A stretch of 64,000 nt of DNA from a virus (Duplodnaviria; Heunggongvirae; Uroviricota; Caudoviricetes), in the IMG/VR virus record IMGVR_UViG_2690316068_000001, positions 1-64,000 of that record. One strand, written 5' to 3'. Shown here piece by piece: positions 1 to 5,471 of this stretch (the stretch's first letter is position 1; every line of letters starts with the position of its first letter). Below the pieces are notes generated by a model that made no database searches, had not been told where the DNA came from, and was given only the letters and a program-made list of their open reading frames with translations. A program made the translations under genes and the position numbers.

Positions 1-255
1 TGCCGTACTTTACCGGTACAGACACTGTTTCTCAGACTGACTTAACGTCAGTCGGTCGCGATATTCTGGCCAAAACAAGCGTTCTTGCTGTTATCCAATA
101 CCTTGGTTTAAGAGAACTCGGTACCAGTGGTGAAAAGATCCCCCTGTTGAGCACGGCTAACACATGGAGTGCGCGCCAGATTTTCAACGGAGGGATCACC
201 GGGGCACTGACAGGGAACGCCGACACCGCGACGAAATTGAAAACAGCACGCACTA
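1..255. repeat. Inverted repeat (right copy) of tail-fibre invertible segment; truncated by window edge
   Basis: Bases 1-255 are the reverse complement of ~3955-4209 (near-identical at the outer end, diverging inward); both copies encode the same in-frame tail-fibre peptide (…LAVIQYLGLRELGTSGEKIPLLSTANTW…). Confidence 0.85.
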
Positions 256-1448
256 TTGGCGGTGTGGCATTTGATGGTACTGCGAATATTAATTTACCTG
301 GTGTTAACGTTGCGGGTAATCAGAATACATCCGGTAACGCGGCTACAGCGACCAAGTTGCAGACAGCATGTACTATCAACGGCGTCTCGTTTGATGGTTC
401 TAAAAATATTGAGCTAACGGCGGAAGATTTAAATCTACAGGAATTTATTAATAAAGCAAATAATGCCGTTCAGCGTTCAGGCGATATCTTGTCCGGCGGA
501 CTTACTTTTGAAAACGACTCAATCCTTGCCTGGATTCGAAATACTGACTGGGCAAAGATTGGATTTAAAAATGATGCCGACAGCGACACAGATTCATACA
601 TGTGGTTTGAAACAGGCGACAACGGCAATGAATATTTCAAATGGAGAAGCAAACAAAGCACCACAACAAAAGACCTGATGAATCTTAAATGGGATGCTTT
701 GTCTGTTCTTGTTAAAGCCCTTTTCAGCAGTGAAGTAAAAATATCGACAGTCAATGCACTGAGGATATTTAATTCATCTTTTGGTGCCATTTTTCGCCGT
801 TCTGAAGAATGCCTGCATATCATCCCTACACGAGAGAATGAGGGGGAAAATGGTGATATAGGGCCACTACGTCCCTTTACGCTTAATCTCAGAACTGGCC
901 GCATAACTATGGGGCATGGTCTGGATGTTACAGGAGATATAACAACTAACGCCTGGGTGTATGCAAACAGGTTTGCTATTAATAGTGGCTCAACCTCATG
1001 GATTGATATGCGAAACCAGAATGTCATTTTTGGTAGAAACGCAGTATCAACAAGTTCTGCGCAGGCTTTGTTAAGACAAGACCATGCAGAACGCAAATTT
1101 TTTGTCGGTGGACTTGGTAACTACCAGTTTGGTTTTTACATGATTAATAACTCAAGGACAGCCAATGGCACCGATGGTCAGGCGTACATGGATAATAACG
1201 GTAACTGGCTTTGTGGCTCGCAAGTTATTCCTGGCAACTATGGCAATTTTGATTCCAGATATGTGAGAGATGTTCGCCTGGGTACGCGAGTTGTTCAATT
1301 GATGGCGCGTGGTGGTCGTTATGAAAAAGCCGGACACGCAATTACCGGATTAAGAATCATTGGTGAAGTAGATGGCGATGATGAAGCCATCTTCAGGCCA
1401 ATACAAAAATACATCAATGGCACATGGTATAACGTCGCACAGGTGTAA
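3..1448 (+). CDS. Tail fibre alternative C-terminal cassette (Sv-prime-like), 5-prime partial; frame open to window start
   Basis: Frame 3 is open from base 3; N-terminal part identical to the conserved repeat region of the 2544-5471 tail fibre, then a different C-terminus; ends NGTWYNVAQV like the other fibre. Confidence 0.7.
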   Translation, partial: PYFTGTDTVSQTDLTSVGRDILAKTSVLAVIQYLGLRELGTSGEKIPLLSTANTWSARQIFNGGITGALTGNADTATKLKTARTIGGVAFDGTANINLPGVNVAGNQNTSGNAATATKLQTACTINGVSFDGSKNIELTAEDLNLQEFINKANNAVQRSGDILSGGLTFENDSILAWIRNTDWAKIGFKNDADSDTDSYMWFETGDNGNEYFKWRSKQSTTTKDLMNLKWDALSVLVKALFSSEVKISTVNALRIFNSSFGAIFRRSEECLHIIPTRENEGENGDIGPLRPFTLNLRTGRITMGHGLDVTGDITTNAWVYANRFAINSGSTSWIDMRNQNVIFGRNAVSTSSAQALLRQDHAERKFFVGGLGNYQFGFYMINNSRTANGTDGQAYMDNNGNWLCGSQVIPGNYGNFDSRYVRDVRLGTRVVQLMARGGRYEKAGHAITGLRIIGEVDGDDEAIFRPIQKYINGTWYNVAQV

Positions 1449-2541: not shown

Positions 2542-2543
2542 CG

Positions 2544-5471
2544 TTAAATACTCCCCGCGTTATACCACGTCCCATTAATGCAATACTGAATTGGCCTTGC
2601 CTGAGTTGTATCAATTAATTCATCACGGTTTCCGTTAACTGAACCTGTAACGACATAACCTGACCTGTCAGACCAGCCGGGACCATTCCATGTCTGAACA
2701 GATGACAGACCGCCCAGGCGAATACCTGTAATAAACCTTGAGTTACATTCTGCCTGCGTATATGCACCAACATCCCCCGCAGAGGGTTTGCGGGTTGTGG
2801 TGTAAAACTCTGACCAGTTAGCTTCAAAGCCATAACCATCACGCGCTGAACGATAAAAGATACCGCCGTTCTTATAATTCACGCGGAACTGTACAGCAGG
2901 GCAACTCCCCGCATTCATATTGAAGTGGAGGATTAATGTCGATGCGCCACTGATATCTGCATCATAAACGCCGCTATTCCAGTTCCAGCCAACAGCTTTA
3001 TCATTTGCAACCCTGCTTCCTGTTTGCCCTAAAGCAAATGCAGGCTGCTGGTTTTTCGTGTTGTAGTCTCTTCGCCAGCCAGGAGCATAAGCATCACCAT
3101 GATTAATATAAGTGAATTGAGCGTTAGTAATTCCGCCACCGCTGGACGTGCTCGGCGTAGTAACGCGTATGGTCATTGCGCCGCGAGTGCCAATAACTTC
3201 CACCACAGCACCTGCAAGACAAATATTTCCGCAACCTGTATCTGTAATGACCTTATTATTTGCATAAGCCCATGAGCCTTTGCACATCCAGTAAGGATGG
3301 TTAAATGCTCCCTGACTCTCCAGCCACGAAATAAATTGCGCGGTTGTCCAGACCTGACTATCGCCACCAATATTCAGCCATGCGCTATATGCGCGGCAGG
3401 CACCAATATTTTTGGTGAAGGTATCTTTTCCCGGAATATCTGCGCCGTTCTGGTTTTTCTGTAATGCTCCTGCGGCTAATTCTACAGTTTGCTCAAGATT
3501 TAAATCTGCCGCCGTTAGCTCAATATTTTTAGAACCGTCAAACGAGACACCGTTGATAGTACACGCCGTCTGCAATTTGGTCGCTGTAGCCGCATTACCA
3601 GAGGTGTCCTGATTCCCTTTGGTATTAACGCCGGGAACGGAATCTTTTGACGTATAGATCTGTGCCCATTCGGACCATGCCGCAGCAGTGCTATCTCTTT
3701 TGGATCGAATGAAAGCTGGTGCATGAGCGCCATTTGTGCCACTCCAGCCAATGAGCAACTCGCCTTCACCAGTGGATGCAGCTCCCTTCAGGTGAAGTAC
3801 ATTCCCGTAAGTCGTCGGATAACCATTGTTGTATGCCTCATACATCTGCAATCCAGTAGCAGCACCTTGCGTTGTACCGGTAAGCGCAGTAACGCGTCCT
3901 CTAGACGTAATTGTTGGTATCGAAATGTTCGTAGAACCATCGAATCTGACGCCATTAATGTTTATGGCTGTTTTTAATTTCGTCGCGGTGTCGGCGTTCC
4001 CTGTCAGCGCCCCGGTGATCCCGCCGTTAAAAGTCTGGCGCGCACTCCATGTGTTAGCCGTGCTCAACAGGGGGATCTTTTCACCGCTGGTACCGAGTTC
4101 TCTTAAACCAAGGTATTGGATAACAGCAAGAACGCTTGTTTTGGCCAGAATATCGCGACCGACTGACGTTAAGTCAGTCTGAGAAACAGTGTCTGTACCG
4201 GTAAAGTACGGCAATTTATTTGCGCCTGTCGCAAGACCAGCAAGCGCGGTTAAAGTTGCATCAAGTGGCTGTTTCCCTGCCAGCGCATTTGTCATTGTTG
4301 TCGCAAAGTTCGGGTCATTGCCCAGTGCTGCTGCAAGCTCATTCAGGGTATCAAGAGCTTCAGGTGATGAGCCGACCAGTGCGGATATGGCAGCTCTTAC
4401 ATAAGCGGTCGTAGCAATCTGCGTGTTATTCGTACCCTGTGCAGCGGTAGGCGCAGTAGGTATTCCCGTTAATGCAGGACTTGCTAAAGGCGCTTTAAGG
4501 GCCAGAGCATTGTTGACAGTTGTGCTGAAATTCGGGTCGTTATTGATCGCAGCAGCTATTTCTTTAAGTGTATCCAGTGTGCCAGGTGCACCGTTGATAA
4601 GTGCAGTTATAGCTGCCTTAACAAAGGCTGTATTTGCTATCTGCGTGCTGTTTGTACCTTGCGCTGCCGTCGGCGCGCTTGGCGTTCCTGTCAGACTCGG
4701 GCTTTCTATTGGCGCTTTGGTATCAGCAAGATCTTTTACAGACTTAACGGCTTTAGGGGTAGCCGCCATTGTTTCGCTGTCGCTGTTAGTTTCGCTACTG
4801 AGCTGAACTAATCCCTTTTGCGTTGTGCTTGCATCCTGCGCCGTATACTTGCTTTTCGCCAGATCGTAGGCTTTTTTAACTGCCAGCGAACTTGCAGCAA
4901 CATCACTTCTGCTACTGGTTACAGAGTCTGAAATATCAATGCCGATCGTGCGGTTAATACGCTCGGATGTATCAATCATCTCCTGGGTAATGGCTGATAC
5001 GCCAGCAGGGATATTCACCGTACAAACAAGCAGCTCTCCATCTCCTAACTGATATGAATCGGTATAGGTTCTGGCAACAAATTCAGCCGCATGAATATGT
5101 GACGCGGTATTCACCTGATAGGTATCTTCTCCAAGGAGGTATCTTCCCTTCAGCACAATTGCATATTTCTTGCCTGCACTAAGTGCAAGAGAAATATCCT
5201 TACGTTGCTGAATAGTTACCTGGTAGAATTCACCAATATCCACCGACGCCGCGCCTGCGGTTTTATCACCATCCACTGAGGTGATTAACAGGTTCATCCC
5301 ACCGCCAGGCTTAGGTAAGAAACCGGCATAAAATCCCGGGTCAACAATCCCCCTGAATTTTCGGTTTAGCGCGGCTGACAGATATGGTTCGTGGTATTGC
5401 ACATCAGCCACCAGAGCCAACGACTCGGGTGATGGGTAAGTAACTGATGTAACAACTGTAACGTCATTCAT
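2544..5471 (-). CDS. Tail fibre protein (S-like) with repeated SPxLTGxPTAPTAAQGTNxTQIAxTAxV motifs
   Basis: ORF-track frame 2544-5558; likely start is the ATG at 5469-5471 (MNDVTVVTSV…) just after the upstream stop. Repeat motifs typical of side tail fibres. Confidence 0.85.
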   Translation of the reverse strand: MNDVTVVTSVTYPSPESLALVADVQYHEPYLSAALNRKFRGIVDPGFYAGFLPKPGGGMNLLITSVDGDKTAGAASVDIGEFYQVTIQQRKDISLALSAGKKYAIVLKGRYLLGEDTYQVNTASHIHAAEFVARTYTDSYQLGDGELLVCTVNIPAGVSAITQEMIDTSERINRTIGIDISDSVTSSRSDVAASSLAVKKAYDLAKSKYTAQDASTTQKGLVQLSSETNSDSETMAATPKAVKSVKDLADTKAPIESPSLTGTPSAPTAAQGTNSTQIANTAFVKAAITALINGAPGTLDTLKEIAAAINNDPNFSTTVNNALALKAPLASPALTGIPTAPTAAQGTNNTQIATTAYVRAAISALVGSSPEALDTLNELAAALGNDPNFATTMTNALAGKQPLDATLTALAGLATGANKLPYFTGTDTVSQTDLTSVGRDILAKTSVLAVIQYLGLRELGTSGEKIPLLSTANTWSARQTFNGGITGALTGNADTATKLKTAININGVRFDGSTNISIPTITSRGRVTALTGTTQGAATGLQMYEAYNNGYPTTYGNVLHLKGAASTGEGELLIGWSGTNGAHAPAFIRSKRDSTAAAWSEWAQIYTSKDSVPGVNTKGNQDTSGNAATATKLQTACTINGVSFDGSKNIELTAADLNLEQTVELAAGALQKNQNGADIPGKDTFTKNIGACRAYSAWLNIGGDSQVWTTAQFISWLESQGAFNHPYWMCKGSWAYANNKVITDTGCGNICLAGAVVEVIGTRGAMTIRVTTPSTSSGGGITNAQFTYINHGDAYAPGWRRDYNTKNQQPAFALGQTGSRVANDKAVGWNWNSGVYDADISGASTLILHFNMNAGSCPAVQFRVNYKNGGIFYRSARDGYGFEANWSEFYTTTRKPSAGDVGAYTQAECNSRFITGIRLGGLSSVQTWNGPGWSDRSGYVVTGSVNGNRDELIDTTQARPIQYCINGTWYNAGSI
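3955..4209. repeat. Inverted repeat (left copy) inside the tail fibre gene
   Basis: Reverse complement of 1-255; marks the constant/variable junction of the fibre gene. Confidence 0.85.

Follow-up and report, generated by a model that had tools for sequence, protein, structure and literature searches.

Organization of the tail fibre locus

The window, that is, the whole stretch of 64,000 nucleotides of viral DNA that was analysed, opens on a tail fibre locus with counterparts in phages P7 and P1. On the minus strand, the long tail fibre gene reported in a first-pass annotation of this DNA is present as described: gene S occupies 2544–5471, encodes 975 amino acids, and is recognized by its open reading frame and the Pfam domain Phage_fiber_2. 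A 1004-aa reading frame with a TTG start, taken from the program-made list, was rejected as the fibre gene because it is an over-extension; gpS, with 975 aa, starts at the annotated ATG (5471). The gene is composed of a constant N-terminal part, Sc (4111–5471, minus strand, from the ATG at 5471; P7 features gpS and Sc, Pfam Phage_fiber_2), and a variable C-terminal part, Sv (2544–4110, minus strand; P7 feature Sv, open reading frame), the joining of which in the window represents the C(+) junction. An alternative C-terminal fibre cassette, Sv', lies on the plus strand at 104–1448 and comprises 447 codons and a stop, as indicated by the P7 feature "Sv prime", Pfam Gp34_trimer, and its translation. 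Sv' lacks both a start codon and its own promoter, and its expression requires joining to Sc. A sigma-70 scan returned fewer promoter-like sites than expected (2 vs 10.4 in 6.2 kb), with no excess of such sites, which agrees with the promoterless plus-strand cassette proposed earlier.

Each cassette is accompanied by a tail-fibre assembly chaperone gene, and the two genes converge, as had been noted at first sight. U' (1449–1979, plus strand), the chaperone gene for S', matches Pfam Caudo_TAP with E = 8e-38 and is annotated in P7; U (2008–2541, minus strand), the chaperone gene for S, is intact with 177 aa and matches the same family with E = 2e-36. The 28-nt gap between them contains a GC-rich hairpin at 1985–2004, AAGGCCCG-loop-CGGGCCTT, which was found in a terminator scan and probably acts as a two-way terminator.

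The R-S-U fibre operon begins with R (5483–5917, minus strand), which is identified by the P7 and P1 annotations and by the Pfam domain Phage_P1_tail_fiber_R on the identical gene of a draft contig. Upstream of R lies a single predicted late promoter, LPs (5947–5966, minus strand), of which 40 of 41 bases match the annotated P7 LPs region; on this similarity, it would serve R-S-U and, after an inversion, R-S'-U'. In P1, LPs transcribes R, Sc, and then the variable cassette turned towards it, namely Sv and U in the C(+) state or Sv' and U' in the C(-) state.

Crossover sites and inverted repeats

In P1, the serine invertase Cin recombines two inverted 26-bp cix sites, with strand exchange at their central dinucleotide; the flip of the segment yields a different distal fibre and thereby a different host range. 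Two such inverted sites with a 2-bp core mark the segment boundaries here, and both lie inside the window rather than beyond view, as had been supposed. The left site at 91–116 reads TTATCCAATACC-TT-GGTTTAAGAGAA with the central TT at 103–104, and was located by the cixL and crossover annotations of P7 and P1, by sequence comparison, and by a pattern search; the right site, cixR, is at 4098–4123 with its central dinucleotide at 4110–4111. Both copies are identical to the cixR of P1 and P7. The inner half of the left site is the same as in cixL and the outer half corresponds to the side of cixR that adjoins Sc, which makes this the hybrid site expected after inversion. The constant Sc thus stays outside the segment defined by these sites, and the two alternative in-frame C-terminal cassettes and the convergent U and U' genes are inside it.

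A repeat finder gave inverted arms at 1–290 and 3924–4213 (290 nt, 92% complementary), in which position p pairs with 4214-p. The repeat that had first been placed at 1–255 and 3955–4209 is therefore real, and its register was off by 4 nt. Bases 1–127 match the reverse complement of 4087–4213 at every position, with the first mismatch at 128, and a perfect inverted match of 127 nt is far above the chance expectation in 9 kb. The whole 290-nt repeat was considered as the inverted repeat of the segment itself and rejected, since only the part from 104 to about 247 is inside the segment. The segment's own arms are accordingly 104–247 on the left and 3967–4110 on the right (about 144 nt with 5 mismatches), and they encode the N-terminal part common to Sv and Sv'. 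Two further inverted repeats reflect coding homology: 1448–1798 vs 2195–2545 (70%) corresponds to U' and U, and 315–443 vs 3489–3617 (88%) corresponds to a fibre motif common to Sv' and Sv.

Sequence comparison places the locus very close to known elements. Window 93–5600 shares 99.6% nucleotide identity with the C segment region of phage P7 (AF503408), and the P7 annotations of cixL, cixR, Sv', U', U, Sv, and Sc transfer to the window base for base. The closed IncY P1-like plasmids NZ_CP031351 and CP057446 are 99.9% identical to it, with just two base differences within 100–5600. The likeness to the P1 C and Mu G switches that had been remarked upon earlier thus holds and goes further, to the P7-type C segment itself, the DNA parts of which are all within the window except cin.

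The left end of the window and the invertase gene

Beyond the left crossover, the window contains 103 nt more (1–103, plus strand), which repeat the final 103 nt of Sc in reverse complement and match 4111–4213, read on the opposite strand, at 100%. In closed relatives, which align from base 93 onward only, this place is taken by the 3' end of cin. The copy is in frame with Sv', and the Sc-Sv' frame is open across the left cix site from base 3; a closed relative encodes a 901-aa S'. The window consequently carries an Sc-Sv' junction of the C(-) type at its left and an Sv-Sc junction of the C(+) type at its right. The first-pass annotation had read this end as a repeat that carries on past the window start, with a serine invertase just upstream; neither expectation held in this sequence, because the outer 103 nt are the reverse complement of Sc, outside the inverted repeat of the segment, and the flank is Sc instead of cin.

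The P1/P7 switch calls for a cin gene with an internal enhancer at the left site. Neither a protein nor a DNA match to cin was obtained in the whole 64-kb window with tblastn and blastn searches using P7 cin. In P7, in P1, and in the closed near-identical plasmids, cin (186 aa; Resolvase and HTH_7 domains) directly adjoins the left site, and a search for Cin homologues found that draft contigs with a 167-aa form of Cin end 138–155 nt past cin. Judging from these relatives, the present element would also possess cin, which may lie at the opposite end of the source contig of about 98 kb; in the circular form of the plasmid it would then adjoin this left site. Alternatively, cin might have been lost or inactivated in this element, and the left junction would then be a fossil of the last inversion combined with a rearrangement. 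P1-like plasmids with a truncated cin or degraded C segments have been published (PMC6906374), and such a frozen relic would accord with the absence of cin from the window; however, both cix sites, the cassettes, and the chaperone genes are intact, the locus is almost identical to closed plasmids with an intact cin, and a relic would give one junction per side, not two Sc junctions in one contig. This alternative is very unlikely.

Contig structure and orientation of the segment

A partial S' product that starts at window base 3 is recorded in five draft contigs, and the four shown all start at window base 1. One of them, L002 (PTQI01000021.1, assembly GCA_002943345.1), is 98,076 bp long and has the same Sc-segment-Sc chimera, with two differences from the window in 11.4 kb. 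Another, L004, has 4213 bp that equal window 1–4213, with a terminal inverted identity of 127 nt, and a third, L003, is a self-consistent C(-) molecule in the order Sc-Sv'-U'-U-Sv-cix-cin-lydC. The largest k in common short-read assemblers is 127, and bases 1–103 together with 104–127 make up exactly a 127-nt terminal k-mer of the contig. On account of the identity run of exactly 127 nt and the four other draft contigs starting at the same base, the assembly graph appears to branch at position 1 with k = 127 and the contig to end there; accordingly, there would be nothing upstream into which the sequence could be extended. Such a branch implies that both orientations would have been present in the sequenced culture. 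Most likely, the 127-mer common to both junctions stops a short-read contig at position 1, and the assembler would have walked Sc - segment - Sc through the graph of a culture containing both orientations. Window 104–4110 very probably represents the 4007-bp invertible C segment of a P7-type, P1-like (IncY) phage-plasmid, with the appearance of Sc at both ends being an effect of short-read assembly. Contig structure is the basis on which we infer a mixed-orientation population. No literature dealing specifically with assembly graphs of invertible DNA was found in a search.

Taken at face value, the window has Sc flanking the segment at either end and joined in frame to each cassette; combined with the lack of cin in 64 kb and the same arrangement in at least one other draft contig (L002), this could also denote a real structure, in which an inverted duplicate of Sc, perhaps with R and the promoter, replaces cin, so that full-length S and S' are both encoded permanently and no switching occurs. 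Several observations stand against such a duplication. The duplication breaks off where the contig does, with exactly 127 bases identical; the drafts with the same start include a C(-) molecule with cin (L003) and a lone contig of 4213 bp (L004), as expected of a branch in the assembly graph; among the listed closed plasmids, every record that extends to the left of base 93 has cin or is plain C(-); and the near-identical contig, at 98 kb, is about as long as a single complete genome of the P1-like type, a closed relative being 96,355 bp. A permanent duplication is hence extremely unlikely, and it is barely credible that the element is a P1-like phage-plasmid in which the inverted constant fibre region has genuinely taken the place of cin, encoding full-length S and S' together. 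If it were true, Sc - segment - Sc would amount to a virion with two fibres or to a form of bet-hedging that needs no recombinase. The earlier annotation had regarded a fibre gene extending leftward as evidence against an inversion switch; literally, the fibre frame does extend leftward, and the evidence favours an assembly path through mixed orientations over a second independent fibre gene.

The occurrence of both orientations in nature is documented by more than the window with its two junction types. Closed plasmids with this same segment have been deposited in both states: the Sc-Sv' junction is found in three closed plasmids at 99.8% identity and the cin-Sv' junction in four at no less than 99.8%, and draft contig L003 is in the C(-) state. 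Inversion would likewise have taken place within this particular culture, as the contig structure suggests.

The absence of cin from the 64 kb counts against the preferred reading of a mixed-orientation assembly, and so does a remaining oddity. Relative to every relative compared, the repeat arms show a reciprocal swap of a single base at 128 and 4086, which inversion at the cix core does not explain. An exact 87-mer of the left arm of the window was found in one of 282 plasmid records, where it is located on the Sv arm, and the right-arm version is listed for one plasmid record at 99% identity or more; in IMG/VR, the left-arm version is absent and the right-arm version occurs in one distant relative. 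The swapped allele at 128 could stem from two slightly different copies, for example if two co-resident P1-like elements, or a plasmid and a chromosomal fragment, were each fixed in a different orientation and merged by the assembler without any active inversion, which would likewise place both junction types in one graph. Nevertheless, P1-like IncY plasmids that share a replicon are mutually incompatible, a second set of variants is not seen elsewhere in the segment, with only two differences over 11.4 kb when compared with L002, and the same contig break in independent assemblies is explained more simply by inversion. A merger of two fixed elements is thus highly improbable.

Relation to known inversion systems

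The C segment of P1 and P7 has been the model of site-specific inversion and host-range switching since the early 1980s, and the tail-fibre switch described here is this textbook system, already known and with nothing biologically new. The finding is ordinary because the locus is near base-for-base identical to P7 and the running-off of the repeat is only apparent, as a short-read contig most likely stops there. It nonetheless carries a caution for genome scans: when an invertible segment is present in mixed orientations in a culture, the end of a short-read contig may consist of one k-mer's length of the opposite flank, which can be mistaken for a second complete gene or for a longer repeat that continues beyond the sequence. 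Properly understood, a contig structure of the Sc-segment-Sc type is indirect evidence of an active switch in the sequenced culture.

With phage Mu and its G segment, the window shares the region 480–3467, comprising the distal fibre parts and both chaperone genes, at 92–93.5% identity and in the same convergent layout. The G segment and Gin system is grouped with phages Mu, D108, SfMu, and P88, and the Mu invertase belongs to the same serine family as Cin. Membership in the Gin-G segment group was rejected, since the likeness to Mu is confined to this interior and everything else, from the constant part of the fibre and the flanks to the other 58 kb of the window, is of the P1/P7 type.

Phage P1 (AF234172), whose inversion mechanism is described in the literature, has identical cixL and cixR sequences and the same order of cin, Sv', U', U, Sv, Sc, R, and LPs. 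The P1 segment is 4256 bp with arms perfectly matched for the first 558 nt, whereas that of the window is 4007 bp with arms of about 144 nt and 5 mismatches; overall, 65% of the query aligns with P1 at about 90% identity, and the segment in the P1 record aligns on the opposite strand. Phage P7 (AF503408; species Punavirus P1) is closer still to the window, with the same 4007-bp segment, cix sequences, Sv', U', U, Sv, Sc, R, and LPs. The differences from P7 are the left flank, which is the reverse complement of Sc in the window and cin in P7; the swapped arm alleles at 128 and 4086; and U, which is intact in the window, whereas a nonsense codon in the P7 record splits it into Ua and Ub. Elsewhere, the backbone of the window is mosaic with respect to P7, for instance with parAB of the P1 type.

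Identity and organization of the locus

Over positions 93-5600, the window shares 99.6% identity with enterobacteria phage P7 (AF503408), 99.1% with phage RCS47 and 99.9% with closed IncY plasmids (e.g., NZ_CP031351 and CP057446); the P7 record annotates the matching stretch as the invertible C segment, and the other 58 kb consist entirely of P1/P7 backbone. The interior (480-3467) also resembles the G segment of Mu and Mu relatives, at 92-93.5% identity. In the published mechanism, Cin-mediated inversion at cix sites exchanges the S/U and S'/U' fibre sets, and host range changes. 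The locus is a P7-type C segment host-range switch of this known kind, with all parts present but cin, for which no match was found anywhere in the 64-kb window.

The first-pass annotation had described a long fibre gene, a fibre cassette and two convergent chaperone genes, and both the ORFs and Pfam agree with that layout: the fibre gene (2544-5471, minus strand; 975 aa from its ATG) matches Phage_fiber_2, the plus-strand cassette ending at 1448 matches Gp34_trimer, and both chaperone genes match Caudo_TAP. Transfer of the P7 annotation places the cixL crossover at 103-104, Sv' at 104-1448 (plus), U' at 1449-1979 (plus), U at 2008-2541 (minus), Sv at 2544-4110 and the cixR crossover at 4110-4111, followed by the constant fibre part Sc (4111-5471), R (5483-5917) and the late promoter LPs (5947-5966), in the region of which 40 of 41 bases agree with P7. 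Gene U (2008-2541, minus) is intact and encodes 177 aa; in the P7 reference record, where a stop codon stands at window position 2261, the gene is annotated as Ua/Ub.

Crossover sites and inverted repeat

A pattern search located two 26-bp cix sites, at 91-116 and 4098-4123, both reading TTATCCAATACC-TT-GGTTTAAGAGAA and both identical to cixR of P1 and P7; the crossover sites, earlier assumed to lie beyond the window, are therefore inside it. The repeat finder returned inverted arms at 1-290 and 3924-4213 (92% complementary), so that the repeat first reported as 1-255 versus 3955-4209 is real, with its register off by 4 nt. In a base-by-base comparison, the reverse complement of 4087-4213 equals 1-127 at 100% identity, the first mismatch falls at 128, and identity falls off beyond about 247. 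The inverted repeat of the segment itself spans only some 144 nt (104-247 versus 3967-4110, with 5 mismatches), whereas the arms of the P1 C segment are perfectly matched over their first 558 nt. Sv' contains two copies of the fibre motif GNA.TATKL.TA..I.GV.FDG..NI and Sv a further one, with repeats at 213-290 versus 333-410 and at 315-443 versus 3489-3617; the second Sv' copy and the Sv copy form a second inverted repeat, in which the Sv copy lies ~300 nt deeper into the segment, relative to its crossover.

The left end of the window

All closed relatives lose their match to the window left of base 93, because the 3' end of cin occupies that flank in them. The window has Sc sequence there instead: the outermost 103 nt of its repeat reproduce the final 103 nt of Sc exactly, in reverse complement and in frame with Sv'. 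The left side consequently carries the C(-) junction, Sc-Sv', and the right side the C(+) junction, Sv-Sc, two junction types that are impossible together on one normal molecule. A frozen relic that has lost cin is a possible, less economical reading, to which we attach very little probability.

The same left end recurs in public drafts. A partial S' product beginning at window base 3 is recorded in five draft contigs, and all four of those shown start at window base 1: L002 (PTQI01000021.1, 98,076 bp) has the Sc-segment-Sc arrangement of the window, with two base differences in 11.4 kb; L003 is a self-consistent C(-) molecule in the order Sc end, Sv', U', U, Sv, cix, cin, lydC, lydA, lydB, darA; L004, a contig of 4213 bp, coincides with window 1-4213 and has a terminal inverted identity of 127 nt; and L005, a short fragment of 2417 bp, has an identical start. 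The largest k of common de Bruijn assemblers is 127 nt, and the 127-mer at 1-127 is the last word common to the two possible Sc-to-segment continuations, which diverge at base 128. An assembly path running from the backbone through Sc and the segment to the other Sc-type junction would halt at this 127-mer. A real inverted duplication of Sc in place of cin would leave unexplained both the identity run of exactly 127 nt and the start base common to the cin-bearing C(-) contig and the 4213-bp stand-alone contig, and is highly improbable. The impression of a repeat continuing past the window edge most likely arises from a contig that ends within the flank common to both orientations.

Since such a path is possible only with reads of both junction types, the contig structure provides indirect evidence for both orientations in the sequenced culture. 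Two co-resident elements, each fixed in the opposite orientation, could be imagined as well; this is less economical and scarcely likely. Closed plasmids with this P7-type segment occur in both states, three with Sc-Sv' at 99.8% and four with cin-Sv' at at least 99.8%, and NZ_CP148408 was examined in detail as a closed C(-) example. Other drafts stop 138-155 nt past the cin stop codon; the locus therefore often breaks assemblies.

Exchanged alleles at 128 and 4086

Position 128 carries C on the Sv' arm and T on the Sv arm in P7, the closed plasmids and every draft, regardless of the adjoining flank, the pattern predicted if exchange takes place at the cix core. The window alleles are exchanged, with T at 128 (Sv' arm) and G at 4086 (Sv arm; C when read on the opposite strand); these two positions are its only differences from the closest closed plasmids within 100-5600 and from L002 over 11.4 kb. 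Between 128 and 181 the arms share 52 identical bases, and exactly this swap would follow from a single crossover there, such as an inversion by homologous recombination, together with an ordinary Cin inversion; it might otherwise be a consensus artefact. In the closed C(-) plasmid L017 (NZ_CP148408.1; locus 6001-6140), the Sv arm has Sv'-type alleles at 181-206, the result of conversion, which shows that arms exchange sequence in nature by gene conversion or recombination.

Remainder of the element

Within 26338-28880, the partition genes parB (26394-27395) and parA (27412-28608) are of P1 type, at 99.3% identity to P1, and have no megablast match in P7 or in the otherwise closest plasmid; with its P7-type C segment, the element is therefore a P1/P7 mosaic. 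An Rfam match to the sok antitoxin RNA (20408-20582, 114.9 bits) indicates a hok/sok module; the surrounding stretch (20113-20807) has no match to P7, the record of which carries rapA/rapB at the equivalent place; in the closest plasmid, hokD is annotated close by. Upstream of icd/ant lie two elements of the ImmI immunity region: the C4 antisense RNA (16865-16950) and, as its target, the a1/b1 element (16744-16796). Three tRNA genes lie within 37192-39057. Two are Asn(GTT) and Thr(TGT); the third, whose anticodon is CAT, is Met according to ARAGORN and is annotated as tRNA-Ile at the aligned position of P7. Positions 53300-58700 form a variable block of small genes that P7 and the closest plasmid match only partly; Salmonella phage SJ46 covers 68% of its length at 99.5% identity, Stx-converting lambdoid phages match parts of it at about 96%, and ead/Ea22-like genes are annotated in the equivalent region of the closest plasmid.
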